Under the pieces are notes generated by a model that was not told where the DNA came from, searched no databases, and saw nothing but the letters and a program-made list of their open reading frames with translations. DNA of 32,000 nt from Trichlorobacter lovleyi SZ. Its GTDB lineage: Bacteria; Desulfobacterota; Desulfuromonadia; Geobacterales; Pseudopelobacteraceae. Position numbers and translations under genes: made by a program. Every line of letters starts with the position of its first letter. Position 1 is the first letter of the stretch. The DNA is taken from contig NC_010814.1 in assembly GCF_000020385.1 (NCBI RefSeq), positions 240,001-272,000 of the forward strand. The letters are read 5' to 3'. Shown piece after piece: positions 8,770 to 27,953 of this stretch.

Positions 8770-8794
8770 CCAAACTACCATAATACATCCAGCG

Positions 8795-8854
8795 GGGAGA
8801 CAACTCCCCGAGGGGAAAGTCTGTCTCCCAGGCTAATAGCAAAGGAGATAGACC
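8795..8854 (+). promoter_or_regulatory. structured 5' leader L5 (SD mimic / anti-SD / SD triad)
   Basis: 8795-8802 gggagaca is the exact complement of 8822-8829 tgtctccc. 8822-8828 pairs with SD 8844-8850 ggagata (7 bp, one G-U). ATG at 8855. Confidence 0.5.
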
Positions 8855-9310: not shown

Positions 9311-9858
9311 ACATAGGCCATCACACTACAGGAGGTACGAGAAGAATGACTGTAAAAACCGTCATCTCTGCGGCGAAGGAATTCGGCGTACCGGAACGCT
9401 ATGCGATCATGCGCCGGCTTTCATTCCTGCAACCGCAAATCAAACATCTGGAACGTGAAATCTGGGGAGCCCAACGGCGGATCGAGCGAAGTTCTGATCC
9501 GCTGGTAAAGGCCCTGACTGAATCCTTCATCAGAGACCAGGAAAAGGAGCTGCGCCCCCTGAAACGGGAGGCAACAGCGCTTCTCAACCATGTCAACGGC
9601 AAGGAGACGGTGCTGGCACCCGGCGGGATCACCCCGGAGATGATCGACCAGGCCCGTCAGTATCCCATCACCAGCATCATCGACTTTTCCAAAGGGCGGT
9701 ATCGATGCTGTCCGTTTCACAAGGACCGCAATCCGTCCATGGCGCTTTACGATAACCATGTCCATTGCTTTGTCTGCAACCGGTCATGGGATTCAATCAG
9801 CGCCACGATGGAACTGGATGGTGTGAACTTCCGGGAGGCAGTACTGGCGCTCCAGTAA
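9307..9858 (+). CDS. CHC2 (DnaG-type) zinc-finger protein without recognisable TOPRIM/primase catalytic domain
   Basis: C-terminus has CCPFHKDRNPSMALYDNHVHCFVCNRSWDSI, which fits the zf-CHC2 pattern. ATGA overlap with the upstream gene. An alternative start is at 9346 after GGAGG. Confidence 0.7.
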   Translation: MNIGHHTTGGTRRMTVKTVISAAKEFGVPERYAIMRRLSFLQPQIKHLEREIWGAQRRIERSSDPLVKALTESFIRDQEKELRPLKREATALLNHVNGKETVLAPGGITPEMIDQARQYPITSIIDFSKGRYRCCPFHKDRNPSMALYDNHVHCFVCNRSWDSISATMELDGVNFREAVLALQ

Positions 9859-10882: not shown

Positions 10883-12409
10883 ATGGCAACAACACCAGCA
10901 CAACGCAGACTTGCTGATGCACTCGACGTCCTGAAAAAACTGCAGGATGGTGGGAAGACTGCAGTAAAATCGAGTGACCTGACTCGATTACAGCGGGAAA
11001 GTCTTGTCAGCAACGGATTCCTGCGACTGATTGTTAAAGGATGGTATATGCCATCCCGTCCGGGAGAGGACACCGGTGACAGCACTCCCTGGTATGCAGC
11101 AATGCGTGACTTTATTCATGGCTACTGCGATGAGAGATTTGGCGATAATTGGCATGTATCGGCAGAATACTCATTGCTTTTACACGCCGGCACAACAATC
11201 TCGCCACGGCAGGTTGTGATTCACTCGCCGCTTGGGAAAAACGGCCTGTTGCAGCTACCGGACGATTGTTCAATCCTTGATTATAAGGCCAAGGATTTCC
11301 CGTCAGCAGCAAAAATACAAGCCGTTGATGGAGTCAGAGCTCTTATCCTGCCTTTAGCACTCATCCGTGTGCCGGAAGCATTTTTCGTCACATTTGCACA
11401 GGATGCACAAATTGCCCTGCATCAACTTCGTGATGCATCAGAACTCAATCGCGAACTGCTCGAAGGGGGCCATAGTACAATTTCCGGACGTCTTGCCGGT
11501 GCATTGCGGGCATCTGGCCGTAAAGAATTGGCGGATGATGTGTTAGCAACCATGCGGGCTGCAGGGTTTGTGGTGAACGAAACAAATCCATTTAACGTTA
11601 CACCACCAAGTCTGCAATTCACAAGAGCACAATCACCGTACGTTCTTCGTATGCGCTTGATGTGGCAAGCAATGAGGGAAACAGTAATTGCCTGTTTCCC
11701 ACTCGAACCTGGCACTCCAGCAGATATTGATAAATATATGGAGGTTGTTGAGGAAACCTACCAGACCGATGCCTATCACTCTCTGTCGATTGAGGGGTAC
11801 CGTGTAACTGCCGAGCTTATTCAGAAGGTTGCTACCGGAAACTGGAATCCCGATGATAATGCTTCTGACGCAGAAGCAAAAAATGCCATGGCTGCTCATG
11901 GGTACTGGCTTGCGCATAATGAGGTTAAGGCAACGATCAGAGGCATTCTTGCAGGTGCAAACCCGGGCGCTGCATTCCGCCTGGACCACGGTTCATGGTA
12001 TCGCAAGCTTTTCACGCCGAATGTCGATGCCGGCTTTCTCAAGCCGGCGGATCTAGCCGGTTATCGGGCAGACAAGGTATTTATCCGGAACGCATCCCAT
12101 GTCCCGCCTTCCCAGGAAGCGGTCCGTGACATGATGCCGGAACTGTGCGACTTGCTGGAGGCGGAGCCCAACGCAGCCGTACGTGCCGTTCTTGGACATT
12201 TTCTTTTCGTGTACATCCATCCGTATTTTGATGGCAATGGTAGATTGGGCCGGTTCCTGATGAATACCATGCTGGCGTCTGGTGGATATCCGTGGACAGT
12301 AATCCGCATTGAGCTGCGGGGTGACTATATGGCAGCGCTTGAAGCGGCGAGTTCGCAAAAAGAAATAAAACCTTTTGCAGAATTCATAGCAAGTTCGATG
12401 AACAGATAA
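10883..12409 (+). CDS. Fic/DOC family protein with N-terminal wHTH-like region
   Basis: The canonical Fic motif HPYFDGNGRLGR lies near the C-terminus. GAGG sits 7 nt before the ATG at 10883, and an in-frame ATG at 10877 is also possible. Confidence 0.9.
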   Translation: MATTPAQRRLADALDVLKKLQDGGKTAVKSSDLTRLQRESLVSNGFLRLIVKGWYMPSRPGEDTGDSTPWYAAMRDFIHGYCDERFGDNWHVSAEYSLLLHAGTTISPRQVVIHSPLGKNGLLQLPDDCSILDYKAKDFPSAAKIQAVDGVRALILPLALIRVPEAFFVTFAQDAQIALHQLRDASELNRELLEGGHSTISGRLAGALRASGRKELADDVLATMRAAGFVVNETNPFNVTPPSLQFTRAQSPYVLRMRLMWQAMRETVIACFPLEPGTPADIDKYMEVVEETYQTDAYHSLSIEGYRVTAELIQKVATGNWNPDDNASDAEAKNAMAAHGYWLAHNEVKATIRGILAGANPGAAFRLDHGSWYRKLFTPNVDAGFLKPADLAGYRADKVFIRNASHVPPSQEAVRDMMPELCDLLEAEPNAAVRAVLGHFLFVYIHPYFDGNGRLGRFLMNTMLASGGYPWTVIRIELRGDYMAALEAASSQKEIKPFAEFIASSMNR

Positions 12410-12418
12410 GTTGCCTAG

Positions 12419-12462
12419 CAATCCGGTCAGGATAGAGGCGGCCCAAATGGCCGCCATTTATT
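12419..12462 (+). repeat. direct repeat copy 2
   Basis: caatccggtcaggatagaggcggcccaaatggccgccatttatt. See copy 1. Confidence 0.65.
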
Positions 12463-12465
12463 ATT
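12437..12465. terminator. bidirectional intrinsic terminator between the convergent Fic and TIR genes
   Basis: The stem ggcggcc (12437-12443) pairs with ggccgcc (12449-12455) and is followed by a T-rich tail ATTTATTATT. It is A/T-rich on both sides. Confidence 0.6.
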
Positions 12466-12478
12466 GGTACAATAGTAT

Positions 12479-12952
12479 TTATCGTTGCCCGGTAGCTGAC
12501 TTCAACATTCGATGAAAATCGCCTGATGACTTTACTGACGCATAAGAAGCCCTGAGAGATTCTGATTTTTCAAGTAGAACACTGCTATCATTATTATACA
12601 GTCTTACAAATTCTGCTAAATGTTCGGGTCTATTCATTATCGGCCAAATATCTAAATATTCCGGCAAACTGACGCCATCAATTTTGTATGAACAGATACG
12701 CCTATCAGCTTCAGAAGCAACCCCTACTTCAAAAGGGACCCACCAAGAACCTGATGTATTGTGTGACATTATCGCCATTAAATGGCTACAGTCACCTATT
12801 CTTGACATAATAACATCAGTAATATTTTTAGATCGTTGCAGTACTTCATCAAATTCATCAATATAGCACTTAATCTTGTTGGCCTCCAAATATGCGTATA
12901 TCTTGAGAGCAGATGCTTTATCTGCTTTACGATGAGACAAAAACACTGGCAT
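12479..12952 (-). CDS. small stand-alone TIR domain protein (157 aa)
   Basis: N-terminal MPVFLSHRKADK, then SGSWWVPFEVG with a candidate catalytic Glu. GGGAGG SD. Confidence 0.8.
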   Translation of the reverse strand: MPVFLSHRKADKASALKIYAYLEANKIKCYIDEFDEVLQRSKNITDVIMSRIGDCSHLMAIMSHNTSGSWWVPFEVGVASEADRRICSYKIDGVSLPEYLDIWPIMNRPEHLAEFVRLYNNDSSVLLEKSESLRASYASVKSSGDFHRMLKSATGQR

Positions 12953-12964
12953 AAATACCTCCCG

Positions 12965-13513
12965 TTATTGACAGCTACGATTATTAACGAACCGATCTCT
13001 CGGATTTACAATTAGATTTGTTTTTGAAGTCCTTGCCAGAAATGCATTATGTATTGCATTAGCCAGAGTGTCCTTGCGCGTTGGGTACTCGATCCATCGT
13101 GCATAGCAATCTACTTGCTGATCATTTTGCTTCAAATTCAAGTTCAGTCTGTTTGGGAAGTTGGTTCCACTTTTAAAACTAGGCAACTTAATCCCAAGTA
13201 AGCCATTGGGTGTCAATGTATTGCCGCTTCTTAGAGACGATTGTATCTCCCAGTCAACATACCTACGAGCCCACGTGCATTTACCCATAAGTACAATTGT
13301 TACCGTGGAATCTTTCAGATATAATTCCCTGATTCGCTTCATAACATAATCAGTATCTGTGCTACTAATTATGCTTTCCTCCATATCAACGCCCAGAACT
13401 CTCGATATGAATACATTTCGTTCATCAGAAAAAGTAGTTATGAAATCATTGACTTCCACTTGGTCTGCGTGGTGATAGGTAATAAATACTTTGTGTCGTA
13501 CGTTGTTACTCAT
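12965..13513 (-). CDS. ThsB-like TIR protein (DUF1863 / MTH538 TIR-like class)
   Basis: KVFITYHHADQ and STVTIVLMGKCTWARRYVDWEI parallel the ThsB pattern (VFFSFHY ... SVTCVLIGSQTFNRRWVRYEI). AGGAGA SD. Confidence 0.8.
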   Translation of the reverse strand: MSNNVRHKVFITYHHADQVEVNDFITTFSDERNVFISRVLGVDMEESIISSTDTDYVMKRIRELYLKDSTVTIVLMGKCTWARRYVDWEIQSSLRSGNTLTPNGLLGIKLPSFKSGTNFPNRLNLNLKQNDQQVDCYARWIEYPTRKDTLANAIHNAFLARTSKTNLIVNPRDRFVNNRSCQ

Positions 13514-13551
13514 AATGGTCTCCTATAAATTTAGTTTTAAAGGCACAAATT

Positions 13552-15573
13552 CTAAGTGGAAAGATTCTTTAGACCTTGAATTATCAGATATATGCACTCA
13601 TCCACAAAAGGGGTTGCCATAAGTCGTAAATACGTCGCCTCGTCAAGCCCTGCATTCTTTGATATTGTCGAAACATCAATTCCTTCGAGGATTGTCTTTA
13701 CTTGTCCGTAGTTTGCATTATTGCCGCTCTTCGAGGCTAAGGTTTGAAGATCAACATACTCTGCATTATAAGTAACCTGCCATGTCTCAGTAAGTGAGTC
13801 TGGATAAGGTTCCTGGCGTAATATCTTACAGACCTCGCCAACAATACCGCCGAATGCGCCCAACAGATAAATAGGTTTATTTTTGTCTATTGCGATAAGT
13901 ATTTCTTCCAAAACTCCTGGCATTTTACCGTTGTATCCTGAAATCTTACCGCCCGCGCATACTCTAGCGTGTGAGGAGTCGATGGATTGTTGGCGCATTT
14001 CTGTGAGACAGCGAGACCAAATATATTTATTCTGAGGTGATGTGGGAGGAAGATATTGATCAGTGTCAACATCATTAGCAATATCGGCTGGAATATCGTG
14101 TTCGACAGTGTTCATAACTGCTCTATAATTTGCACGCCACGAGGTCATTTCTTTATCAGCCTTATGGATTGGCCATGCTAAATGATTTTCCACATGTATG
14201 TCATGGGTATTGAGACGGGATTTCAATGCCACAGCTTCATTGAGGATAAATTCTGTAAAGCCATCCTTGCGTAAGTCCCCTCCATAGATCAACGTGGCAG
14301 ATCTGGCAAGCAGGTGTCTTGCAAGATCTTGGGCCAGCCTTACAGATTGGCTTGTGGGGAGATGGTGCTCTTTAAAACAGCCACTTGCGACATCAGAGAC
14401 AGAGATGCCAACTCGTAAACCTTTTAGCGAATTATTGTCAGAACTGCTCCAAAGAGGGGTAAATGTTTCAATCGATAGATGGCTATGCCACTCGCCTTCT
14501 TCAGAATAAATTGGAGGTTCCGGATAACAGAGTTTATTTTTCTGGTCATCTGACTTCAACGTAAGAAGTTGACGAATTTCAGGTGGTCGGGAAAAGAGAG
14601 CACATCTGCTGTCGATCCAGCCTCTTGCTTGATAATGCTCAAGTGAGGACAGAGCATGGCAGTGGCGTATAGTCTCCAGAATTGCGGCGGTGAGTATTTT
14701 GAGTACATCTGATTCCTTGAGCGGGGATTCTGGCGATATATGAACACATGGTATATTCGAACCAGCGGGAAAGATTCTGTCTTCAAATTCCTCCAAACAG
14801 TTGATGGCTATCATTGGCCGGTGATGCTCTTTTGCACTTAAAATTTCCCGCTGACACCAATATCGAGATGAATAATCGTCACTACAAATCGCCAACACAG
14901 TTGATTCTTTAATGCTTTTAATTATTTCCTCGTCAAACTTGAATCCTGGGGAAATTGTCGTGGCATCAAAAAAATGAGACATGTTTGTAGTGTCGATAAA
15001 TCGCTTAATTGATTCTGCGTGTAAACGTCCGGTGTCTCCACTCTTTGCATGGCTGAGAAATAATTTTATGGAAGATGACTTTCCATGGTCCTGTTCTTCT
15101 ATTTCAATAAAACCATGTCGATATAATTCATGTGCCATGGCAAGTACCGTATTTTGAACCATGTATTCCTTCTGCCACTCATATACACGAATGAAATTAA
15201 TGTTTTTGAGGCTTCCCCCACCACCGTGCCCAAGCCCCTCATGGGACAATGCAACAGGAACTGCCCGCATTGTTCGAGTAAGCTTCAGATTGTTGATGTA
15301 ATTGTCCCATAATGTGTATCCTCTCGTATTGACACTCGTAAAAACAAATAAAACATTCCGTAAAGCGAGTTCACTCGGGAGGTCATTGGGTACGTCGGTC
15401 GGACTGCATGAACTATAGAAAAAAATTGGAATATTTAGATTTCGAGAAAAAGGACGATTGATATCCCTTGAAAAGCACCTAGTAATTGCTTCTAGGATCG
15501 GATCAACGGTATCACTGTCCAATGGATGCCATATGAAGTGAACTGCAATAGGTGGTTTGTATTGTGGGGACAT
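13552..15573 (-). CDS. multidomain TIR-SLOG protein (N-terminal TIR-like region, central TIR, C-terminal SLOG/STALD-like domain)
   Basis: The central region has KLFLSHAKSGD ... DDYSSRYWCQREI (TIR). The C-terminus has LIYGGDLRKDGFTEF and GKMPGVLEEILIA ... LLGAFGGIVGEV, which resemble the LOG/SLOG glycine-rich and PGGxGTxEE-type motifs. GAAGGA SD. Confidence 0.8.
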   Translation of the reverse strand: MSPQYKPPIAVHFIWHPLDSDTVDPILEAITRCFSRDINRPFSRNLNIPIFFYSSCSPTDVPNDLPSELALRNVLFVFTSVNTRGYTLWDNYINNLKLTRTMRAVPVALSHEGLGHGGGGSLKNINFIRVYEWQKEYMVQNTVLAMAHELYRHGFIEIEEQDHGKSSSIKLFLSHAKSGDTGRLHAESIKRFIDTTNMSHFFDATTISPGFKFDEEIIKSIKESTVLAICSDDYSSRYWCQREILSAKEHHRPMIAINCLEEFEDRIFPAGSNIPCVHISPESPLKESDVLKILTAAILETIRHCHALSSLEHYQARGWIDSRCALFSRPPEIRQLLTLKSDDQKNKLCYPEPPIYSEEGEWHSHLSIETFTPLWSSSDNNSLKGLRVGISVSDVASGCFKEHHLPTSQSVRLAQDLARHLLARSATLIYGGDLRKDGFTEFILNEAVALKSRLNTHDIHVENHLAWPIHKADKEMTSWRANYRAVMNTVEHDIPADIANDVDTDQYLPPTSPQNKYIWSRCLTEMRQQSIDSSHARVCAGGKISGYNGKMPGVLEEILIAIDKNKPIYLLGAFGGIVGEVCKILRQEPYPDSLTETWQVTYNAEYVDLQTLASKSGNNANYGQVKTILEGIDVSTISKNAGLDEATYLRLMATPFVDECIYLIIQGLKNLST

Positions 15574-15585
15574 TCTATTTCCTTC

Positions 15586-15849
15586 TTACCGTGTCATTTT
15601 TTTGGACGGCCTCTGCGCCAACGCGCTTGCCGCGGCTGTTTTTGACGTTTTGCTTGTTCGCCCGTCACGTAGTACACTTGATGCCGCCGACGCCGCTGCT
15701 TCCGATGTCACCTTTTTAGGTGCGTTTGTCTGTGAAAGTGTGCTACCTGCCGCAGTTTTTGATTTCGGAGCAGTATTGCCACTTTTTAACGTTTTTGCTG
15801 CACTTGATGCCGCCTTTGGCCCTGTTACCCCAGATTTTACCTTTGACAT
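15586..15849 (-). CDS. small basic Ala/Ser/Lys/Thr-rich repeat protein (87 aa)
   Basis: AGGAG SD 6 nt upstream. It is the first gene of the operon and stops 12 nt before the TIR-SLOG start. It has four degenerate repeats with an AA-S-x-L core (AAKTLKS, AAGSTLSQ, AASSVLRD, AAASALAQ). Confidence 0.55.
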   Translation of the reverse strand: MSKVKSGVTGPKAASSAAKTLKSGNTAPKSKTAAGSTLSQTNAPKKVTSEAAASAASSVLRDGRTSKTSKTAAASALAQRPSKKMTR

Positions 15850-15867
15850 TTCAATCTCCTTTTTTTC

Positions 15868-15896
15868 TTGAAGTTTTCTATCATGAAGGGTATAAA
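15868..15896 (+). promoter_or_regulatory. candidate promoter for the WYL regulator gene
   Basis: TTGAAG (15868-15873), 17 nt, then TATAAA (15891-15896). Confidence 0.35.
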
Positions 15897-15908
15897 AACT
15901 GTACGCAT

Positions 15909-15937
15909 AATATATATACGGATAGTTGCTATGTCAA
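15909..15937 (-). promoter_or_regulatory. candidate promoter for the TIR operon
   Basis: On the minus strand, TTGACA (15937-15932), 17 nt, then TATATT (15914-15909). This is close to consensus. Confidence 0.4.
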
Positions 15938-15975
15938 TATAGTTTTTATACGTATCAAGAAAATGGGAGAATTCG

Positions 15976-16827
15976 ATGGATGATCAATCGGTTACGATTC
16001 CTTGGAGTACGCGAAAACGGCTGCAATATCTTGAATTCAAGCTGTATTGGGAAGGAAGGGTCAATCGAGGAGACCTAACTGCAGAATTTGGAATATCAAT
16101 CCCCCAGGCTTCGGTTGATTTCACAAAATATCAGGAGATGGCACCCAATAATATCTCATACAATTCAAGTGCGAAATACTACGAGCCAGCCGAATCATTC
16201 ACACCGATATTCATTGAGCAATCAGCGGATGCATATTTTTCAACTATCTTGTGTTCACCGACCGATAGCATTGCCACTTGTGGATCGGATTATGTCGCAG
16301 CTGTTCCAAATCCTACTCGTGCTATCGATCTTGATGTTCTAAGAACATTGGTTCAGTCCATCAAGAATAAGCAGGTTGTCTCAGTAGATTATCGGTCATT
16401 TAACAATCCACAACCAGGAAATACTCGATTGATTTCTCCACATGCCTTTGGAACAGATGGGTCGAGGTGGCATGTACGAGCGTATTGCCATGAAAGTAAT
16501 TCTTTCAAAGACTTCGTACTTGGAAGGATAGCTTCTGCAGTAATGGGGTCTGAGTCAGACATTGATGTGAATAGCGACTTCAAATGGTTTAACTATGTCG
16601 ATGTTGAAATCGGTCCTAATCCAAAGTTGAGCGAAGCGCAAAAAAGTATCGTCGTTATGGATTATAGAATGACTGATTTCAAATTGAAATTTAAGTGCAG
16701 GATGGCCCTTTTTTTCTATTTGTCGAAAAAGCTTGGGATCGACCGTAACGACAGCGAGCGTGCTGGTGAAGAGCAGCAAATCGTGGCAATAAATTTGGAT
16801 GAAATCAACGCGTCTATGCGTCAATGA
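15976..16827 (+). CDS. wHTH-WYL domain transcriptional regulator (BrxR/CapW-like)
   Basis: The N-terminus has RGDLTAEFGISIPQASVDFTKY (HTH). The middle has RLISPHAFGTDGSRWHVRAYCHESNSFKDFVLGRI (WYL-type). GGGAGA SD. Confidence 0.85.
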   Translation: MDDQSVTIPWSTRKRLQYLEFKLYWEGRVNRGDLTAEFGISIPQASVDFTKYQEMAPNNISYNSSAKYYEPAESFTPIFIEQSADAYFSTILCSPTDSIATCGSDYVAAVPNPTRAIDLDVLRTLVQSIKNKQVVSVDYRSFNNPQPGNTRLISPHAFGTDGSRWHVRAYCHESNSFKDFVLGRIASAVMGSESDIDVNSDFKWFNYVDVEIGPNPKLSEAQKSIVVMDYRMTDFKLKFKCRMALFFYLSKKLGIDRNDSERAGEEQQIVAINLDEINASMRQ

Positions 16828-16831
16828 AGTG

Positions 16832-17608
16832 ATGAAAATAAGTATTTCCGAGCAACTTTCGAATATCGAAACCGCCCATGGCGTGCGTATTCTCTACGCA
16901 GTAGAATCCGGCAGCCGTGCCTGGGGTTTTGCCTCCCGCAACAGCGACTACGATGTCCGGTTCATCTATATTCACATACCAGACTGGTATCTCTCGATTC
17001 GTGAACGGCGGGATGTTATTGAATGCCCAATTTCTAACGATCTTGACATCAGTGGCTGGGATCTCAGAAAAGCACTTGGTTTGTTCAGCAAATCCAATCC
17101 TCCGCTCCTGGAGTGGCTCGGTTCTCCGATTATTTACATGGATGCTTTTGGACTTGCCAGTAGATTGCGTGAGATGCTGACCACTTCATTTCAACCGCAG
17201 CGCAGCATGTATCACTACTTGCACATGGCTCGGGGCAACTATCGGGAGTACCTGAAGGGGGAAGTAGTCAGGCTGAAGAAATATCTCTATGTGTTGCGAC
17301 CAATACTTGCCTGCCTCTGGATTGAAAAGCACGGGACAATGCCGCCCACCGAGTTCAGCAAGCTGGTACGCGATGCACGTCCGTCCGTCACGTTGAGTGC
17401 GGCCATTGATGACCTATTGCAACAAAAAATGTCTGGTAACGAACTGGATACGGCCCCAAAGATCCCAGTGTTAAACGAATTCATTGAGCAGATGTTGGAT
17501 CATTACAGCCTGTTGTCTGGCAAAAGACCGACTCCGGTCGCTGACTATGATGCCCTAGATCAGCTCTTCAGAGAGATGCTGCAATCGGTGTGGGGTAACA
17601 CACCGTGA
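16832..17608 (+). CDS. Pol-beta superfamily nucleotidyltransferase, COG3541 / RlaP-like
   Basis: ILYAVESGSRAWGFASRNSDYDVRFIY, then WYLS...RDVIE...LDISGWDLRKAL...SNPPLLEWLGSPIIY. The start lies 4 nt after the WYL stop. An alternative in-frame ATG is at 16799. Confidence 0.8.
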   Translation: MKISISEQLSNIETAHGVRILYAVESGSRAWGFASRNSDYDVRFIYIHIPDWYLSIRERRDVIECPISNDLDISGWDLRKALGLFSKSNPPLLEWLGSPIIYMDAFGLASRLREMLTTSFQPQRSMYHYLHMARGNYREYLKGEVVRLKKYLYVLRPILACLWIEKHGTMPPTEFSKLVRDARPSVTLSAAIDDLLQQKMSGNELDTAPKIPVLNEFIEQMLDHYSLLSGKRPTPVADYDALDQLFREMLQSVWGNTP

Positions 17609-18096
17609 ATGTCCAACTGGAAAAAATCGTATCCGGTGGACAAACCGGTGCTGACCGGGCCGGTCTCGATGTTGCCATGAAAGTCGGACTCCCTGTCGGT
17701 GGCTATTGCCCCAAGGGTCGTCTGGCTGAGGATGGCACAGTGCCAGAGCACTATCCTCTGGTTGAAATGACCAAGGGAGGCTATTCCGCCCGTACCGAAC
17801 GAAACGTCATAGAATCGGACGGGACTCTGATTCTTAATATCGGCAAGTTGTCCGGGGGAACCCGGCTAACCGTGGAGTGCGCTCGTAAGCACAACAAACC
17901 TCACTTGGTAATCCAGTTGGATACGGCCAAACCGAAGGTATCCACGCTTGCGGAATGGATCGACGAGAATAATATCCGGGTGCTGAATGTCGCTGGTCCG
18001 CGCGAGAGCAAATCACCCGGGGTGCATCAATTGGCTTGCCGTTATCTGGAGGAATTTTTTCTGGCGGCAGGCTGTCAACCCGCGACAGGATCGTAA
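17605..18096 (+). CDS. stand-alone SLOG domain protein, cpYpsA ('MoCo carrier') type
   Basis: IVSGGQTGADRAGLDVA signature. The GTG start forms a GTGA overlap with the upstream stop. Confidence 0.8.
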   Translation: MNVQLEKIVSGGQTGADRAGLDVAMKVGLPVGGYCPKGRLAEDGTVPEHYPLVEMTKGGYSARTERNVIESDGTLILNIGKLSGGTRLTVECARKHNKPHLVIQLDTAKPKVSTLAEWIDENNIRVLNVAGPRESKSPGVHQLACRYLEEFFLAAGCQPATGS

Positions 18097-19293
18097 ATGA
18101 CTGCAACCAGTATCGTCAAATCTCTCTTCCCGCAAGAAACCTGGTCCAGGATATGGATTGTTGGTGGCACGGTCAGGGATGTTCTCAATGGGAAAGACGG
18201 TGAGGACATCGACCTCGATGCCGTCTTGACTCCAGAGGAACTGGCATCATACGGTTTCAGGCCTGTAGACCCAGTGACCAGCGCACCCATCTGGTTTCGG
18301 CACATCCCGGAGATCGGCAAGATCGAGATCACCAGTCTGGCGAGTGTCGACCTGCTCACCGATGACCTGACTCGTCGTGACTTCACAGTGAACGCCATGG
18401 CCATGACACTAGATGGAGAAGTTGTCGATCTGTTCGGGGGAATTCAGGACCTGGGACAAAAGAGACTCCGTGCGTGCTCGGACGTATCATTTCAGGGTGA
18501 TCCCATCCGGATTTTTCGCGCATTCCGTTTCGAGTCTGAAGAATGGCGCATGGACCCTGATACAACTCGAATGATCAGCGATGTTTCGTGGGAGAAAAGC
18601 TTCTCATGCATTCCGGTGGAACGATTCAGCCGAGAAATGGTCAAAGCCCTGGGCAAGGGAGAACCGGAACGATTTTTTCGCAACATGGTCGAAATGAATG
18701 TAGGCAGCACTTATCTGCCGGAGCTGTTTGCCATGAACACAGTGCCGGCAGGTCCGATTGACAAACACCCCGAAGGTGATCTCCTCACTCATTCGCTCCA
18801 GGTATTGCAGCGCACTGTCGGGGCAAGCAATGATCCGCTCGCCAGATTCTGTGCCCTTTTCCATGATCTAGGTAAACTCGAAACAGATCCGGAGCTTTAC
18901 CCCAAGCACCACGGTCATGATGATGCTGGCAAGATCACTGCCAAGAAGTTCTGCGACCGCCTTTGCCTGCCTGTATCCTGGAGACGCGCTCTCATGGGAA
19001 TATGTCACTTGCACACCAACGCGAACAACTGGAACGAACTTCGGGACTCAACCAGGATTCGCATGGCTGACCAAGCGGTTAAGTCTGGCATTACCGAGAT
19101 CCTGCCGCTGGTGTCTGCGGCGGATAAACCTTGTGGATCTGGTATGGCTGGATGGGAGATGACAGTCCGGATTGTGCAGTTGAACACAGCCGAGTTGGGG
19201 ATAAATCAGGACGCCATGGAAACCATGCCGGTTGAGAACCGGGCAGGATTCATCTTGCAGAAGCGGGTCGACCAACTGCGTCGTCAGATATGA
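18097..19293 (+). CDS. class II CCA-adding enzyme / poly(A) polymerase family nucleotidyltransferase with HD domain
   Basis: IVGGTVRDVLNGKDGEDIDLD (GGxVRD plus DxD), RRDFTVNAMA, GDPIRIFRAFRF, then HPEGDLLTHSLQV and ALFHDLGK (HD). The ATG directly abuts the upstream TAA. Confidence 0.85.
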   Translation: MTATSIVKSLFPQETWSRIWIVGGTVRDVLNGKDGEDIDLDAVLTPEELASYGFRPVDPVTSAPIWFRHIPEIGKIEITSLASVDLLTDDLTRRDFTVNAMAMTLDGEVVDLFGGIQDLGQKRLRACSDVSFQGDPIRIFRAFRFESEEWRMDPDTTRMISDVSWEKSFSCIPVERFSREMVKALGKGEPERFFRNMVEMNVGSTYLPELFAMNTVPAGPIDKHPEGDLLTHSLQVLQRTVGASNDPLARFCALFHDLGKLETDPELYPKHHGHDDAGKITAKKFCDRLCLPVSWRRALMGICHLHTNANNWNELRDSTRIRMADQAVKSGITEILPLVSAADKPCGSGMAGWEMTVRIVQLNTAELGINQDAMETMPVENRAGFILQKRVDQLRRQI

Positions 19294-19769
19294 GTTTGAA
19301 CGCTGCTGTCCTGGAGCCATTGCTGAACGAATTGTTTCTCTCGGGTTCTTTTCAAGTCGAGTTGCCAATGCACGGCGGCGCAGACATCGGAACAATAGGA
19401 TACAACCCGAATGCGCGGATCGTCTTCCTCGGTGAACCTCACATGAATCATGCCAACCTTCTGCTGGGGCGAGGTGCAGGCTTCACAATGTTGAACCGTC
19501 GGGCCATTGAGTCCGTCATCATTGCTGACTGACAGGAACCGAGTGCCCGATATGTTGATGAAGGTGCGGTGCCAATAGGCGTCTCCTTCGACAACCAATA
19601 TGTTGCGCAGGTGATGGCATGACAATTCCTGTGAATAGCTTCTGTTACAAAAAGGGCAGACTCCGCGATCGAAGCGGTCGCTTATCCCGGAAATCATGGT
19701 TAGCGCTCCAGGGGTGAGATCCTTGTGATCACAGACAACGGGCTTGCCTTCATGGTCCCAGAGAATCAT
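19284..19769 (-). CDS. hypothetical Cys/His-rich protein (161 aa)
   Basis: ATGA overlap with the integrase stop. Contains CPFC...CHH and CEAC...C..C..H clusters. Its 3' end overlaps the convergent CCA-like gene by 10 nt. Confidence 0.5.
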   Translation of the reverse strand: MILWDHEGKPVVCDHKDLTPGALTMISGISDRFDRGVCPFCNRSYSQELSCHHLRNILVVEGDAYWHRTFINISGTRFLSVSNDDGLNGPTVQHCEACTSPQQKVGMIHVRFTEEDDPRIRVVSYCSDVCAAVHWQLDLKRTREKQFVQQWLQDSSVQTHI

Positions 19770-20854
19770 GGCGACTCCTCTGTCTCCTGGTCAGGAGCGG
19801 ATGGTATGCATGAATCATCAACCGGCGGTGTCGGTGCCGTAGTTATTACCAGAGGAATTTTTCTGGTGAAGCGTTTATGCTCCCGGCCACTGGCGGCATA
19901 GATGGCGCTGGTGCTGATGTCCTCATGGCGTAACGTATCCTGGACGGCCCGGATGTCCTTGGTGACATCGTATAACATTGTGCCGCACGTGTGCCGCAGG
20001 GCATGGCAGGAAACCCGTTTCCGTTTCAGACCGGCTTTGCTCAGGTAACCGTCAATGACACTATTGAGGCCGATGCGCGATATCCGGCCCCTGCCTCGGC
20101 CATTCTTGCGCACGCTGAGAAACATTGGCGTAACGAACGCTTGCCGGTGATGGATGGTGGTTTCCTCGACTGTAACCTCACCCCTGGCAGCAAGGTAGGC
20201 CCGGATGGCGGCCACTGTATCTTCCCGGGGGTAGATATAACCATCTTTGCGCTTGCCGTGGACCAGAATGCGCACACCGCCCTCGACGTCTTCGATGTCT
20301 TCGACGTTGGCCCGTTTGATTTCGACACGCCGGAGTCCTTCGAGCAGCATAAGGGCAATGATGGCCCGGTCGCGCAACCCTTTGATGCTGCCAAGTACGG
20401 GAAGGTGCATGATCAGCAGTTCCGCCTGTCCGGCAGTAAGATGTTTTTGCTCCGATTTAGCTTCCCGGGCAACAGGAGGGCGAACATTGGCCGCCGGATT
20501 GATGGCGACCAACCCCCGGTTCATGGCGACCTGGTAAAATCGTCTGATGACGGTCAGCTTTACCGCGATTGACGATGCTTTCATGCCGGCCTGGATGAGT
20601 TCATGGCGAAAGCTCTCCACATCGGCCTGGGTCATGGCAGCCGGAGTGATGCCACGGGCGTTACACCAGCGGAGCCAATGGTTGAGGTGGGACGTGTAGG
20701 TTTTGATCGTGTCTTCGCGTGGATCACCCAGGGCAACTTCACGTTCCAGCCAGTTGCGTACTGCGGCTTCAAGATCCGCTGGCAGGTTGTCCGGAATCTG
20801 GCTGGAGATCAGTGCCGAATGGGGGCCACCGGTCGGGATGATATCATTATTCAT
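19766..20854 (-). CDS. tyrosine recombinase / integrase (XerC/D-like, N-terminal SAM-like domain)
   Basis: LLEGLRRVEI (Arg I), HALRHTCGTMLY (H-x-x-R) and RHEDISTSAIYA (catalytic Tyr region). Confidence 0.9.
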   Translation of the reverse strand: MNNDIIPTGGPHSALISSQIPDNLPADLEAAVRNWLEREVALGDPREDTIKTYTSHLNHWLRWCNARGITPAAMTQADVESFRHELIQAGMKASSIAVKLTVIRRFYQVAMNRGLVAINPAANVRPPVAREAKSEQKHLTAGQAELLIMHLPVLGSIKGLRDRAIIALMLLEGLRRVEIKRANVEDIEDVEGGVRILVHGKRKDGYIYPREDTVAAIRAYLAARGEVTVEETTIHHRQAFVTPMFLSVRKNGRGRGRISRIGLNSVIDGYLSKAGLKRKRVSCHALRHTCGTMLYDVTKDIRAVQDTLRHEDISTSAIYAASGREHKRFTRKIPLVITTAPTPPVDDSCIPSAPDQETEESP

Positions 20855-21206
20855 GCGGATGCTCCGATTCGATGCTGGTAAGTGAAGTGTGCATTACGGC
20901 GCTGACAAAACCGTTGATGAATGCCATGACTTCCCGAGGGGGGCCGTGGTAGAGCGATACACTCGGCACCCGGTCTGGCCGTGGACGTCGATAAAGACGG
21001 TTAACGGTGAACCCGGTCCCGGTTCGTTCAACCTTCAGACCCGAGTCCCAGGATTTGAGCTGATTGTTGTTTGCTGAAATACACGCTTTGCTAAGAGCGC
21101 GTTCCGTGATCTTTGACAACCTGACCCCCCTTGTAATTTCCTGTCGAAGTGTGACGTAAAACCGGCCAGTCAGTTGGCCGTCTTTCTGGGCGGAATACCT
21201 ATACAT
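20847..21206 (-). CDS. hypothetical protein (119 aa)
   Basis: An 8-nt overlap (ATGAATAA) with the integrase start. No convincing SD and no motif. Confidence 0.4.
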   Translation of the reverse strand: MYRYSAQKDGQLTGRFYVTLRQEITRGVRLSKITERALSKACISANNNQLKSWDSGLKVERTGTGFTVNRLYRRPRPDRVPSVSLYHGPPREVMAFINGFVSAVMHTSLTSIESEHPHE

Positions 21207-21285
21207 AATTGGGGAAATGTATAGTTATCCGCTTAATTCAGTCGATTCCCGATTCTTGTCGAACATTGACTGAGAAATAGACATC

Positions 21286-21549
21286 TCATTTCAGTGTCGT
21301 CTCCCGGTACCCTTTACGTGTCTTCTCTCGATAAAGACGATTGGCTTCCTTAACGGCGTCCTCAATCCTGGGATACCATTCCTCTTTACAGCGGACCCGA
21401 TACCCGATCCTTCCCCATGCTCTGAACAGCACGACATGGAATAGTCCCTGGCAAATCTCCAGGAAATAAATCCGGCGACGGTTCAGTGCCGGGTTGATCA
21501 GGACGAGTTGACACCGGCAGTAACCGGTGAACCTCGAAGTAAACGACAT
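21286..21549 (-). CDS. stand-alone WGR domain protein (87 aa)
   Basis: LFRAWGRIGYRV matches the W-G-R-I-G core of WGR domains, and the size equals a single domain. Confidence 0.7.
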   Translation of the reverse strand: MSFTSRFTGYCRCQLVLINPALNRRRIYFLEICQGLFHVVLFRAWGRIGYRVRCKEEWYPRIEDAVKEANRLYREKTRKGYRETTLK

Positions 21550-21790
21550 TATCGTCTCATTGGCATCTGAATTTTATTGCTTCTATTATGTATATCTATT
21601 GGGGGGGAAGGTGAGGCGGGACTTTTTTGTATTATTGAAACAATTCAATCTCGGGAAAATAGTAGTGAAAATAGTTTGTCAAAGTTGCGATTCTGTGAAA
21701 TTCAGGATCGTTAGCGTCATTTCTCTGCGTAACGGCCTTACCTTTTGTATCTGAAAGTAGCCTTAGTTTATCCAAATAGGAAGTTGCAAG

Positions 21791-22636
21791 TCACACATGA
21801 CTCGTTACAACGATTGACCGAAGAGCTTCCAACTCAACCGGTGGATCTGTTCGGTGTACTGCTGAGTGGCAGTTAGAGCACAGCGGCACAAGGTCTCTGA
21901 TTGGGTCAATAACATAACTTGCTCCCATCTTTGATACGGGTATGCGATGATGTACTTCAATATATCCCTTTCCAATCTGACCATAGACCTTTCCAAAATC
22001 AAAGCCGCACACATGGCAGACTGTCCCGTAGACTGCTATACATACAGCCCTGTTCACAGGACTTCTCTCATATTTGTTTACAATTACCTTAATGCAAGCA
22101 CCCTCGGGGAGACCACCTTCAAATAGAGGCGTTGCTGCGTTATCAGTCTCTTCCAAAGGTAAAATTGTCAGTACCAATGCGAGGCATGCCGCAGCAATTT
22201 CCTCGGCACTGCTCTGCAAAGCATCTTCACTCTCTGTCGCAGCATCTGTAAGTCGTCGAACAGACAGTTCAAATTTATTCCAGGGTGCAGGGGGCAATTC
22301 TGATGTTTTTGATATTACAGACCCATTGACACTTATTTTAATGCGATTACCTAACTCACTGAAAGACTCAACCAGTGTACCGAAAACATTCCTCGCTTGT
22401 GGCAAGGAGTTTCCCATTGCCCTGATCAGATCACCCGCATAGGTGTCGGGAACAAAATCTGCCTCTAAGCTTTTCCATCCAGTAGTTACCTGAATCATAA
22501 AACCATTGGGTGATGGTATATCAGTTGCGCGAAACCCGTGGCGAATGCCATCTTTTGTTGAAACGACACATCCATCCAACCCTAGACGGAATCGGGCGGA
22601 GAGGCTCTCGGCAAGTTTGTATTCATTCAAGGCCAT
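21791..22636 (-). CDS. HNH endonuclease with ~190-aa unknown N-terminal domain
   Basis: The C-terminus has CHVCGFDF...GYIEVHHRIPVS...LVPLCSNCHSAVHR. Confidence 0.85.
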   Translation of the reverse strand: MALNEYKLAESLSARFRLGLDGCVVSTKDGIRHGFRATDIPSPNGFMIQVTTGWKSLEADFVPDTYAGDLIRAMGNSLPQARNVFGTLVESFSELGNRIKISVNGSVISKTSELPPAPWNKFELSVRRLTDAATESEDALQSSAEEIAAACLALVLTILPLEETDNAATPLFEGGLPEGACIKVIVNKYERSPVNRAVCIAVYGTVCHVCGFDFGKVYGQIGKGYIEVHHRIPVSKMGASYVIDPIRDLVPLCSNCHSAVHRTDPPVELEALRSIVVTSHV

Positions 22637-22655
22637 TTATTATTCAACCTTTCTG

Positions 22656-24272
22656 CTATACTTCGTCTTCAGGAGGTTCTGGCAAATCCTCTACCAAACG
22701 CCGGAGAATTCGAGAAACTTCATAACGCATTTCCTCGAAATTCCTCTTGTTGTTTTCGCTTACATTACCAAGTTCGGCTGCACAAAGTCCCCAAATAAGG
22801 GAATCAAGTCCTTGGATAGTTACCCCGGATTGTTTGTTAGGAACATAAACCTTGTGGTAGTATGGATGACCTGTGTTGATACGAACGGCCTGATTCCCGT
22901 CGATGAATGCTGGTTCCCATAATACACCGTCTTGCAGGCTATCAACTGATTGGACATGACATTCGCCACTATTCTTTTGTTCAACCAGTTTGATCTTGAG
23001 CTTTGTGACTCCATTCTTGTTCGAAATCGTTACGTCACCAGTAGCACCATCAACCTCTGTGACAACGGCTGTTTTTAGATTATCGGCTTTTGCATGAATT
23101 GCATTATTTGAGACAGCATGGATCAGTGCCGCAGTCCCAGTTATTGTGGCGGCAACACCCTTACGATAGCGTTCTTGGCCTTCTCTACGGGGACCTTGCA
23201 AAAACTTCTGCATCCAGTCATAAAGCGAGTCATCCAGCAAGATTCTGGATTTTTTTATGTCCACCTGAAAGGCATCATCAAGTTTGTGGTCAAAAGATAG
23301 TTCTATACGGCATAATGACATGTGTGGTTCTTTACTGTACATTTCAAGCCAGTCTGGCCCATGAATCAAGCGGTTCTCGCGATATACATATAACCCTTGC
23401 ATGTCGTTGGTAAGTCGGGCTTCCTTGACAGTCGTCTGATCTGAAAACTCATCCTTTCTTGGAAGGATATAGGCTCTGACCGTAAATTCCGCATGCTCTG
23501 TTTCGCCTATTTCTACTTTCTGAACTTTTTCAGCTATGGGCGCTTTGGTTTCTGTTACACAATATGGGTCCCAAGGAAGAACCTTTTCACCATTTACACG
23601 GATACTCACATCAATAGCGCGTTTGTCGTTTACATCCAAGAATCGTTGGTAGACCATTGATACATGAAATCGCAATTCGTCAACATATCGCTTTAATGCA
23701 GTCTTTGCAGCTTTACCATCAGGAACTGCATACGCCTTTAGCAGTCGGTCAACCTTTTCCCATAATATTACGGTACCAGGCTGGGCGCTGGCAACTGTAT
23801 CAAGAAGTTTAATTTCATCTGGAGCTGCTGATCCAAGTTTCAATTCCCAACGCCCAACTGCGGCGATGTGATCAAGGTCCCAAGTTGCCTTTAATACATC
23901 ACTCCCAGCCTGACTACGGCTAATTACGGACAATCGGCGGCAAAATGCTGTTGAGGCTGTTTTTAGCCCAAGGCCAAATTTACCCAGACTGGCTTGATCT
24001 GCACGTCGTTTAGACCCGTAACGCATCGCATTGATAAGTCCATCCCGGTCCATTCCACATCCGTCATCAGTTACGGAAACCAGAATGTTCCCACCAAAAT
24101 CCATCGCGACAGTTACTTCGATATTCTTTGCTTGTGCAGCAATAGAGTTATCTATTACATCCGCCATTGAGGTGTTAAACTCATAACCAGTGTCTCTCAA
24201 CCCCTCAATGATGCGTTCTGGATCAGGAGGTACATCAAGGTACGGTGAAGATAGCGTGCTGTTGTCAGCCAT
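22656..24272 (-). CDS. GHKL (HATPase_c_3, MORC/MutL-like) ATPase
   Basis: ADVIDNSIAA (N box), VTDDGCGMD (G1) and GKFGLGLKTAS (G2). The ATG at 24272 lies 8 nt after AGGGAG. The ORF track starts 9 nt earlier at a GTG (24281). Confidence 0.85.
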   Translation of the reverse strand: MADNSTLSSPYLDVPPDPERIIEGLRDTGYEFNTSMADVIDNSIAAQAKNIEVTVAMDFGGNILVSVTDDGCGMDRDGLINAMRYGSKRRADQASLGKFGLGLKTASTAFCRRLSVISRSQAGSDVLKATWDLDHIAAVGRWELKLGSAAPDEIKLLDTVASAQPGTVILWEKVDRLLKAYAVPDGKAAKTALKRYVDELRFHVSMVYQRFLDVNDKRAIDVSIRVNGEKVLPWDPYCVTETKAPIAEKVQKVEIGETEHAEFTVRAYILPRKDEFSDQTTVKEARLTNDMQGLYVYRENRLIHGPDWLEMYSKEPHMSLCRIELSFDHKLDDAFQVDIKKSRILLDDSLYDWMQKFLQGPRREGQERYRKGVAATITGTAALIHAVSNNAIHAKADNLKTAVVTEVDGATGDVTISNKNGVTKLKIKLVEQKNSGECHVQSVDSLQDGVLWEPAFIDGNQAVRINTGHPYYHKVYVPNKQSGVTIQGLDSLIWGLCAAELGNVSENNKRNFEEMRYEVSRILRRLVEDLPEPPEDEV

Positions 24273-24286
24273 ATAAGTCACTCCCT

Positions 24287-24712
24287 TTATATCTTAATAA
24301 CTTTCCAGCCACCTGAAAGGACCAGAACATCGTCCTGGCCCATCTCAGGTGCATTTGCACGTTTCACTTCCACCGTAAGACGGCCCTCTAAACACTTGGA
24401 CAAAACAACATGGTCACCAACCTTTGCATTTCGGGCTCTAAGATACTGAGTCATGCAAGTAAGCCGGTATTCATTTCTCGTCCCACCGAAAAAACGGTTA
24501 TTATAGTAAATAAAGTTGAAATCCCATCGGGTAATGCCGTCTCCTTCACGAAATACCAGTGTCACACGAGGATTCTTCTCTTTTGAATTTAATGATGGGA
24601 AAAAAGACAGAATCTCAAGGTCCTTAGGGACGAGAATTCCTGCTTGGTGGCCTCCGGTTTCACCTACGTCGTTCGCACTTAGAATCTTTGTTATTTGAGC
24701 CGAGTATGTCAT
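24287..24712 (-). CDS. stand-alone EcoRII-N-like (B3 / DNA-binding pseudobarrel) domain protein
   Basis: KILSANDVGETGGHQAGILVPK closely parallels EcoRII KRLSANDTGATGGHQVGLYIPS. It also has GGTRNEYRLT versus EcoRII GKTRNEKRIT. ATGA overlap with the SNF2 stop. Confidence 0.85.
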   Translation of the reverse strand: MTYSAQITKILSANDVGETGGHQAGILVPKDLEILSFFPSLNSKEKNPRVTLVFREGDGITRWDFNFIYYNNRFFGGTRNEYRLTCMTQYLRARNAKVGDHVVLSKCLEGRLTVEVKRANAPEMGQDDVLVLSGGWKVIKI

Positions 24713-26634: not shown

Positions 26635-26667
26635 TTATTTAACCCGTAATATGGCTGATGAATCAAG

Positions 26668-27879: not shown

Positions 27880-27953
27880 CCTGAACCCCTATGTTAAATC
27901 TTTGGGGTTTTATATCACGTAAATAGGGGTAAATACGAATGGAAATGATGTAG

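Follow-up and report, generated by a model that had tools for sequence, protein, structure and literature searches.

What is the function of four adjacent genes at positions 15976–19293 of a 32,000-nucleotide stretch of the Trichlorobacter lovleyi SZ genome (contig NC_010814.1, positions 240,001–272,000; hereafter, the window)? They encode a regulator with a WYL domain, a putative nucleotidyltransferase of the RlaP family, a SLOG protein of the cpYpsA (circularly permuted YpsA) family, and a second nucleotidyltransferase with an HD domain, which we will call NTase/HD. The initial annotation, which was made from the sequence alone, proposed that this cassette either repairs RNA 3' ends or uses nucleotidyl transfer as a ligand-gated effector. 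On balance, we think that the genes form an accessory operon for the repair of RNA (most likely tRNA) 3' ends, on an integrative/conjugative island, with each biochemical step predicted from homologues. To judge from sequence comparisons, the cassette is most likely a modular, ligase-free variant of RlaP-type RNA repair that is wired to a CapW/BrxR-type repressor, and not a fixed four-gene unit.

Four closely spaced genes under purifying selection

All four genes are on the + strand. The CapW/BrxR-type WYL repressor gene (15976–16827, 283 amino acids), the cpYpsA gene (17605–18096, 163 amino acids), and the NTase/HD gene (18097–19293, 398 amino acids) were defined by open reading frame (ORF) calls and Pfam. 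The RlaP gene (16832–17608, 258 amino acids) was defined by the ORF call and an alignment of homologues: the mechanical ORF begins at 16799, and 19 aligned homologues favor the ATG at 16832 (the MKISISEQ position). Reading the sequence directly, we found the junctions that had been described: a 4-nucleotide (nt) gap between WYL and RlaP (TGA-AGTG-ATG), a GTGA overlap that places the GTG start codon of cpYpsA over the stop codon of RlaP, and a 0-nt junction between cpYpsA and NTase/HD (TAA-ATG). Because of the GTGA overlap and the 0-nt junction, cpYpsA and NTase/HD are probably translationally coupled with RlaP. NTase/HD ends with a TGA at 19291–19293 and overlaps a convergent 161-amino-acid ORF by 10 nt.

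The domain assignments and the quoted motifs of the initial annotation are borne out. At levels well beyond what chance would give, Pfam identifies WYL (E = 2e-12), RlaP (PF10127, E = 1.6e-95), cpYpsA (PF12694, E = 5.8e-61), and the PolyA_pol head (E = 1.4e-17) and HD domain (PF01966, E = 3.2e-6) of NTase/HD, and every motif quoted for RlaP, cpYpsA, and NTase/HD is present, at positions that do not vary in the family alignments. The WYL, RlaP, and cpYpsA proteins are without a model in NCBIfam. Relative to orthologues, the ratios of nonsynonymous to synonymous substitution rates (dN/dS) are 0.06–0.08 for WYL, 0.04–0.09 for RlaP, 0.08–0.22 for cpYpsA, and 0.14–0.17 for NTase/HD (0.04–0.22 overall), so all four genes are under purifying selection.

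GC content rises along the operon, from 42.1% for WYL to 49.8% for RlaP, 54.7% for cpYpsA, and 53.5% for NTase/HD; the average for the T. lovleyi genome is 54.8% (PMC3403914). This gradient is consistent with a mosaic origin in which a low-GC regulator was joined to native-like cargo. NTase/HD has the same sequence (100% identity) as ACD94014.1 / WP_012468371.1 from T. lovleyi SZ. The exact protein is present on 20 assembled contigs, and local gene order is alike in all four of the places shown. A megablast of 15900–19400 against complete genomes of E. coli gave zero matches, and the cassette genes have no entry in the supplements of the genome paper (of G. lovleyi). Scans of the window for tRNAs and with Rfam found nothing.

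RlaP has intact catalytic residues

The match of RlaP to PF10127 covers model positions 1–248 of 249. Its GSRAWGF and DYDVRF motifs lie on invariant columns, and the polymerase-beta signature (G27, S28, D39, D41, D72, and D77) is invariant in 20 sequences. RlaPs from Pseudomonas (P. fluorescens and P. aeruginosa) show little specificity in adding one or two nucleoside monophosphates to the 3'-OH ends of damaged RNA, and are required for the restored aminoacylation of over-trimmed tRNAs (PMC12776372).

Among 74 RlaP relatives (48–70% identity), the immediate neighbors include RtcB (9 cases), WYL proteins (7), Hen1 (4), and TROVE proteins (3). An association of RlaP with an RNA ligase, from which the family has its name, is therefore seen in 9 of these 74 more distant relatives, as well as in a related locus, L274, that has RtcB 4.5 kb upstream. 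RlaP-containing RNA repair systems have reportedly been described by Burroughs and Aravind in 2016. Matches to RlaP on plasmids are all under 60% identity. Some close RlaP homologues with 60–78% identity and 390–397 amino acids (P0273, P0299, and P0329) share a conserved N-terminal extension of ~130 residues (alignment columns 1–140), which has no match in Pfam.

NTase/HD has the signature of a CC-adding enzyme

Besides its PolyA_pol head and HD domain, NTase/HD matches PolyA_pol_RNAbd just below Pfam's cut-off (E = 1.9e-4, 21.5 vs. 22 bits). The best NCBIfam model, PRK10885, describes E. coli-type multifunctional CCA enzymes; NTase/HD scores 175.6 bits with it, and the cut-off is 451. The matches to all other NCBIfam models for CCA enzymes or PcnB are below cut-off as well. 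The motifs GGTVRD, DIDLD, RRDFTVNA, and H256-D257 are on invariant columns. The invariant residues include those of motifs A and B (G23, G24, V26, R27, D28, D37, D39, R94, and D95) and those of the HD domain, with its His/Asp metal ligands (H232, H256, D257, H271, H272, H274, and D343).

Between motifs A and B, CCA-adding enzymes have a flexible loop and a basic/acidic motif that are needed for adding the terminal A; bacterial CC-adding enzymes characteristically lack the loop (PMC7014341). NTase/HD lacks the loop: it has a 12+3-residue gap relative to the CCA enzyme of Planococcus (6ibp), and T. maritima (3h37), too, has a longer segment than NTase/HD does. The KIE(I/V)T strand precedes the shortened segment and DDLxRRDF follows it, and the whole family reads KIE(V/I)T.L....L.DDL.RRDF. 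Nor is the basic/acidic motif conserved. From these two features, we predict that NTase/HD adds C-C only. In other words, the loop deletion relative to 6ibp and 3h37 puts the protein in the predicted CC-adding class. It had been annotated as a class II CCA-adding/HD enzyme: the class II head and the HD domain stand, while addition of the full CCA does not fit the loop-less signature.

NTase/HD shares with the E. coli-type CCA enzyme (PRK10885) the order of head/neck nucleotidyltransferase followed by HD, as well as the conserved residues of motifs A and B and of the HD domain. It differs by its low score, the lack of the loop and of a conserved basic/acidic motif, and a divergent motif D (see below), and by being accessory and island-borne. 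Bacterial CC-adding enzymes that work with a separate A-adding enzyme (as in Aquifex and Geobacter sulfurreducens) are marked by the loop deletion (PMC7014341) with motifs A–E retained; NTase/HD has the deletion, and its motif D is divergent. The host's order is known for splitting the two activities, and Geobacter has separate CC- and A-adding enzymes (PMC8208693). Unlike those enzymes, which stand alone, this copy is coupled to RlaP and cpYpsA, and its activity is a prediction.

The NTase/HD family has 2492 database matches at E ≤ 1e-10, and the few with a named source are from Desulfuromonadaceae, Desulfuromonadales, or Geobacteraceae. In a neighbor-joining tree, a clade of cassette proteins (the window's and P0001–P0006) is sister to a clade with a core-like context (P0009, 67% identity).

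RlaP and NTase/HD are linked in several lineages and in a large array of repair genes

RlaP touches a member of the NTase/HD family in four lineages: the clade that includes the window (with cpYpsA in between), L106, L003, and L109. In L106, whose NTase is 62% identical, a 277-amino-acid RlaP is followed by the NTase with a 0-nt gap and without cpYpsA. In L003, residues 217–250 of RlaP remain (7898–7999) and end 1 nt before the start codon of the NTase; in L109, residues 1–41 remain (5846–5968), ~30 nt upstream of the start codon. Because these remnants lie directly upstream of NTase/HD, we think that the L003/L109 clade had an ancestral RlaP-NTase operon and that RlaP decayed twice. The contexts of the NTase/HD genes of L003 and L109 otherwise look chromosomal.

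An array that was seen in two samples (L108/L274/L275) places the same genes among other putative RNA repair enzymes. Positions 1–20789 of L274 contain at least 19 co-directional genes. The array begins with an ADP-ribosylglycohydrolase, a 252-amino-acid protein, RtcB, proteins of 394 and 279 amino acids, an AAA_33 P-loop kinase, a Thg1-like enzyme (Thg1 with Thg1C), and a 386-amino-acid protein. RlaP, a radical SAM/SPASM protein, cpYpsA, and (at 0 nt) NTase/HD follow, and it ends with an FtsA-like ATPase, a 104-amino-acid protein, a Metallophos protein, a 737-amino-acid protein, and a Ser/Thr kinase-FHA protein. An ORF like the 161-amino-acid ORF of the window (orf161) and the integrase come next. 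cpYpsA and NTase/HD of this array form a single 1550-nt block with 78% identity to the window. Judging by the families of its members, the array would unite ligation, 5'-end repair, 3'-end addition, and end healing. It may be among the largest arrays of RNA repair genes, and several of its members have no match in Pfam. We also noticed that L274/L275 adjoin the same integrase family as the window does.

These comparisons, with RlaP next to NTase/HD in four lineages and an island with RtcB, a Thg1-like enzyme, a kinase, and a phosphoesterase, strengthen the 3'-end repair half of the initial annotation; the functions themselves remain predictions. There is also a resemblance to the repair sets of phage T4 and jumbo phages (Pnkp, Rnl, the RlaP-like NrdC.11, CCA enzymes, and Thg1), in that an RlaP and a CCA-type enzyme are carried by a mobile element; L274 adds Thg1 and RtcB to the likeness with the jumbo-phage inventory (PMC7824862). 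Unlike in the phages, the carrier is a bacterial integrative element, cpYpsA is present, and the genes would be under a host-type immune repressor.

WYL-RlaP is a backbone and cpYpsA-NTase/HD is a mobile block

A DNA comparison of the window with 13 related loci gave a map of alternating blocks. The region up to ~12400, through a Fic gene, is conserved; 12401–15854 is variable (cargo 1, which in the window comprises TIR/SLOG genes); 15855–17600 is conserved (promoter, WYL, and RlaP); 17601–19350 is variable (cargo 2, which in the window is cpYpsA and NTase/HD); and 19352–21631 is conserved (orf161, integrase, a 119-amino-acid ORF, and WGR).

L094, the closest sister element, lacks exactly cargo 2; its WYL and RlaP are 98% and 97% identical to the window's. 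L098, L099, and L100 have WYL-RlaP followed by genes on the opposite strand, and in L101, WYL-RlaP is followed by a 937-amino-acid gene, a coiled-coil gene, and an Hsp70-like gene. In an element of Geomobilimonas luticola, WYL-RlaP-cpYpsA is followed by an MBL/RMMBL gene and a 507-amino-acid gene. The arrangement is the same in an assembly of run DRR462664, which carries the same cpYpsA protein; sources for this protein name Geobacter sulfurreducens subsp. ethanolicus. In L095, cpYpsA is followed by a Bax1-I membrane protein. The full set of four genes is found in L001, L002, a third contig (from gene calls only), and L096. In L096, NTase/HD (8266–9461) is frameshifted after about residue 196 and the flanking genes are intact, which reflects either the decay of an accessory gene or an assembly error. 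Remnants of cargo 2 persist elsewhere: L101 retains ~70 nt of the 5' end of cpYpsA and L103 retains ~68 nt of the 5' end of the NTase, so cargo 2 was probably lost or replaced in these elements. At greater distance, none of the 74 species-representative genomes with RlaP relatives has cpYpsA or the NTase/HD family within ~6 kb, which is the length of the flanks that we compared.

Thus, WYL-RlaP is the constant backbone of a family of integrase-bearing elements, and cpYpsA and NTase/HD are a separate, mobile, two-gene block. The idea that the two nucleotidyltransferases and the SLOG protein are a conserved unit fails, given the swaps, the exact absence in L094, and 0 of 74 among the distant relatives. 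The suggestion that the cassette is accessory holds, given its location on an island and the absence of cpYpsA and NTase/HD from L094.

Since the slot at 17601–19350 is variable (empty in L094, with MBL/RMMBL and 507-amino-acid genes or Bax1-I elsewhere), we considered whether cpYpsA and NTase/HD might be unrelated cargo that landed between the RlaP backbone and orf161-integrase, with no shared pathway. Between the window and L001, the synonymous divergence (dS) is 0.56 for cpYpsA and 0.29 for NTase/HD, as compared to 1.33 for WYL and 1.15 for RlaP; these lower values show that cargo 2 was exchanged later than the backbone, in keeping with a hotspot. cpYpsA also occurs alone in many other contexts. 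However, the GTGA overlap and 0-nt junction imply translational coupling, the two genes moved as one block into a different array (L108/L274), RlaP and NTase/HD adjoin in independent lineages without cpYpsA, and a huge phage (L247, described below) has a CCA-type gene with an HD domain that overlaps a SLOG gene. Pure coincidence at a hotspot is weakened by this coupling and by the repeated, independent pairings of NTase with RlaP and with SLOG, and we consider it unlikely.

Another explanation is that NTase/HD is the sole CC-adding enzyme of T. lovleyi SZ, for routine tRNA maturation, and that its proximity to RlaP and cpYpsA is historical. Some family members without RlaP are in core-like chromosomal contexts: P0009 has hemH on one side and an Fe-ADH gene on the other, with uvrB/uvrC nearby, and P0120 is near genes for UDG and lipoate. 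The GC content of NTase/HD (53.5%) equals the genome average (54.8%), and no other homologue from T. lovleyi is among the best 120 of the 2492 matches, although an absence from the best 120 carries little weight. Against this explanation stand the gene's place in a mobile island, between conserved blocks; its exact absence from L094, whose WYL and RlaP are 97–98% identical; the frameshifted copy in L096; and the other genes that hold the slot in G. luticola and the DRR462664 assembly. A housekeeping role is quite unlikely.

A predicted CapW/BrxR-type repressor and a conserved, putative bidirectional promoter

The WYL protein has full-length matches to solved structures of CapW (7tb5, E = 6.7e-55, as well as 7tb6 and 9c5g) and of BrxR (7t8k, E = 3.4e-40). 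Residues 21–294 of 7tb5 align with residues 9–278 of the WYL protein. Similarly, in precomputed annotations of contigs that have the identical NTase/HD and the same arrangement, the 283-amino-acid gene matches WHD_BrxR, WYL, and BrxR_CTD. We predict that it is a transcriptional repressor of the CapW/BrxR family (winged helix-turn-helix, WYL, and WCX).

CapW is a repressor that acts on a bidirectional promoter and is freed by single-stranded DNA (PMC11662680), and BrxR binds inverted repeats (PMC9122601). Conservation and a promoter scan point to a bidirectional promoter/operator region at 15868–15960. The candidate + strand promoter, which we read from the sequence, is TTGAAG (15868–15873), a 17-nt spacer, and TATAAA (15891–15896); it fails the scanner's rule for position 6. 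The predicted minus-strand promoter (TTGACA-17-TATATT, from 15937 to 15909) scores 11/12. An inverted repeat (15881–15903 and 15938–15960) has a perfect 10-bp core, TATAAAAACT / AGTTTTTATA. Its arms are 34 nt apart, while BrxR sites have been described as ~20 bp.

About 100 bp of this region (15855–15965) is near-invariant in ten elements (L001, L009, and L094–L101), and the cargo to the left is wholly different. The divergent genes begin right at the edge of the conserved block, and in sister elements they are E2/E1/JAB or ubiquitin-like/E2/E1 genes, not TIR genes. Conservation is higher in the promoter region than in the neighboring coding sequences, and both cargo slots break at fixed points. 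The promoter and the fixed slots suggest a plug-in platform for the expression of immune cargo in this family of elements. We infer that one repressor-promoter cassette may control the immune cargo, which is interchangeable, as well as its own operon, from RlaP onward.

The WYL protein is a CapW/BrxR homologue over its full length, and it is probably not just the regulator of the three genes downstream, since the promoter also faces swappable immune cargo. As with CapW (in CBASS) and BrxR (in BREX), whose solved structures it matches over their full lengths, the gene is transcribed away from immune genes, from which a short conserved region with predicted promoters and an inverted repeat separates it, and in sister elements the divergent side holds E1/E2/JAB-type cargo. 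Unlike in those systems, the regulator's predicted transcription unit runs on into RNA-end enzymes, and one regulator-promoter cassette would serve swappable immune cargo across a family of elements.

Could the operon itself be an effector or addiction module? RlaP or NTase/HD might be a growth-arresting modifier of RNA 3' ends, like MenT or AbiEii, that extends tRNA acceptor ends when the repressor is released, with the HD enzyme and cpYpsA as modulators or antidotes. The promoter is shared with abortive-type immune cargo and the repressor family is known from CBASS and BREX, nucleotidyltransferase toxins that extend tRNA 3' ends do exist (MenT), and RlaP's additions at 3'-OH ends show little specificity. 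But the RlaP family differs from MenT and AbiEii; the wider RlaP clade adjoins repair genes (RtcB, Hen1, and Ro) and not toxin-antitoxin partners; the island of L274 is composed of repair enzymes; and WYL-RlaP pairs occur without any candidate gene for an antidote. Also, no PADLOC (2023) model matches RlaP or cpYpsA, and in the same models NTase/HD has only a weak match to Cas3-HD (0.005) and WYL matches only generic models for CRISPR-associated WYL proteins, so the components match no model for a named anti-phage system. We consider a toxic role very unlikely.

The cpYpsA gene is coupled to the NTase/HD gene

The quoted motif of cpYpsA, SGGQTGADRAGLD, is on invariant columns. The alignment has 44 invariant columns, including SGGQ.G.DRA.LD, RTE.NV, and AG.R, and these are polar and glycine-rich. 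The protein is 49% identical (E = 7.8e-41) to PDB entry 3imk, a 'putative molybdenum carrier protein', and the folds are similar (TM score 0.83). A Foldseek search of PDB with the AlphaFold2 model of cpYpsA (mean confidence score, pLDDT, of 89.8) found only 3imk, which is unannotated, and generic Rossmann folds; it found no liganded relative and no functional lead. PF12694 is a large family, with at least 7987 protein clusters at E ≤ 1e-5 and 266 stretches in a collection of viral contigs, and the literature that we searched contained no characterization of it. The plasmid contexts of cpYpsA (Klebsiella IncA and Geoalkalibacter) are heterogeneous and uninformative. From the coupling of the genes, we infer that cpYpsA would be a nucleotide-binding or nucleotide-processing partner of the HD-type nucleotidyltransferase.

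We also considered that cpYpsA might sense signals from the adjacent TIR proteins. We rejected this because TIR-type cargo occurs without cpYpsA in L094 and L099, and cpYpsA occurs beside E1/E2 cargo in L001 and L009. The presence of cpYpsA does not track TIR cargo, and the other half of the initial proposal, a ligand-gated nucleotidyl-transfer effector, is without support.

In the region 5923–9113 of L247, a 354-kb viral contig, a 472-amino-acid HD-bearing CCA-type gene overlaps a 184-amino-acid SLOG gene (found by the cpYpsA model) by 4 nt. The SLOG protein has two cpYpsA-like segments in swapped order relative to the protein in the window, so it is non-permuted or differently permuted. A YqeY-like protein follows the SLOG gene, and a sigma-70 gene is upstream.

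The island around the cassette

The window is a mosaic island, and the locus is an accessory one on an integrative/conjugative island. The genome paper for T. lovleyi SZ describes an F-type tra island at Glov_0304–0322 (PMC3403914); the protein's accession number suggests that the window lies just upstream of it. The backbone upstream of the cassette encodes DUF3150, CobT/VWA, a 1117-amino-acid DUF6094 methyltransferase-helicase, a DnaG-type zinc ribbon, RadC, and Fic.

Minus-strand genes for TIR, ThsB-like TIR, and TIR-SLOG proteins precede the cassette. An 87-amino-acid ORF rich in Lys, Ala, and Ser (15586–15849, minus strand, 50.8% GC) is co-directional with three TIR genes, and together they span 12479–15849: a 673-amino-acid TIR protein with SLOG-cluster-2, a ThsB-like TIR protein (182 amino acids), and a TIR_2 protein (157 amino acids). 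The three TIR genes are 38–43% GC, and the set begins at the edge of the conserved CapW-type promoter. The TIR/SLOG set looks like a Thoeris-like signaling system; PADLOC's ThsB models match it weakly. In sister elements, this slot holds E2/E1/JAB or ubiquitin-like/E2/E1/BubE sets.

Beyond the cassette, the conserved minus-strand block at 19284–21549 encodes the 161-amino-acid Cys-rich ORF, a tyrosine integrase (with a 4-nt overlap), a 119-amino-acid ORF, and an 87-amino-acid WGR protein. The Cys-rich ORF has a weak HNH-like match (0.0026). Because the orf161-integrase block lies between two variable regions, the integrase may act in the exchange of cargo as well as in the integration of the element. 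A second defense cluster follows on the minus strand (21791–30215), with an HNH protein that resembles type IV methyl-directed restriction enzymes, a GHKL ATPase (HATPase_c_3), an EcoRII-N fragment, an SNF2 helicase, EcoRII-C, Vsr, and a C5 cytosine methyltransferase (Dcm). To the right of the integrase, contigs with an identical cassette diverge (L270 vs. L271).

The proposed role of the operon

In E. coli, the HD domain of the CCA enzyme clears 2',3'-cyclic or 3'-phosphates. We propose that the CapW/BrxR-type repressor would bind the bidirectional promoter and hold down both its own operon and the divergent immune cargo, as its homologues do. Because CapW repressors leave DNA when the WYL domain binds single-stranded DNA, expression might rise upon DNA damage, phage replication, or conjugative entry. 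RlaP would then extend the 3'-OH ends of damaged RNA by one or two untemplated nucleotides, like its homologues from Pseudomonas, and could restore positions upstream of the CCA, such as the discriminator base. The HD domain would remove 2',3'-cyclic or 3'-phosphates left by RNases. The head of NTase/HD, given its missing loop and unconserved basic/acidic motif, would re-add C74 and C75, and the cell's separate A-adding enzyme would supply A76. cpYpsA may act beside NTase/HD on nucleotides.

The RtcB-RlaP-RtcA systems of Pseudomonas (PMC12776372) are similar in that they rely on the same RlaP family, with intact catalytic residues. Furthermore, the wider RlaP clade adjoins RtcB, Hen1, Ro/TROVE, and WYL genes, and a related element has RlaP, cpYpsA, and NTase/HD co-directional with RtcB. 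Unlike in those systems, RlaP's partners in the window are an HD-bearing second 3'-end nucleotidyltransferase and a SLOG protein, a CapW/BrxR-type repressor takes the place of RtcR, and the operon is on a conjugative island beside immune cargo.

Several observations weigh against this proposal. Among the window's ORFs of at least 110 amino acids, we found no RNA ligase or end-healing kinase, which is another difference from the RlaP systems above. In motif D, the nucleotide template, NTase/HD has GDPIR in place of EDxxR, and the consensus of its family, DDPIR, likewise retains Asp and Arg but not Glu. What cpYpsA does is the weak point of the repair model. At 80 viral loci, cpYpsA was never near RlaP or the NTase/HD family; its flanking genes are scattered among heterogeneous nucleotide and NAD functions (phosphoribosyltransferase, ThyX, ADK, CinA, NADAR, and DUF4326), with no consistent partner. 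And because sister elements have unrelated genes at the position that follows RlaP (MBL/RMMBL with the 507-amino-acid gene, Bax1-I, or the Hsp70-like cluster), adjacency at this slot is in part a hotspot effect.

A more specific version of 3'-end repair is that RlaP, cpYpsA, and the CC-adding/HD enzyme rebuild tRNA 3' tails as a form of counter-immunity for the mobile element, induced by single-stranded DNA from conjugative entry or phage attack. The immune nuclease Cas12a3 trims the 3' tail of tRNA up to the discriminator base (PMC12851939). The targets could be Cas12a3-like effectors, CdiA- or colicin-type tRNases, or MenT-like extenders of the host or of competitors. cpYpsA would be a subunit that processes RNA ends or nucleotide adducts, for instance by clearing ADP-ribose-type or nucleotide adducts before C-C addition. 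This version is tentative, and we think it somewhat improbable. If true, it would give the large PF12694 family its first function.

If the operon does repair RNA ends, it would be a compact and ligase-free way to rebuild the 3' tail of tRNA, with bases from RlaP, healing by the HD domain, C-C addition by NTase/HD, and the final A from the host. On a conjugative island and under a repressor that senses single-stranded DNA, it would be a logical counter to immune nucleases that clip tRNA tails. It would also give the cpYpsA family (PF12694) a partner and a pathway that can be put to the test, the first for these proteins. And the layout of this family of elements, with one regulator-promoter cassette and swappable immune cargo, is useful for finding genes for defense and counter-defense.

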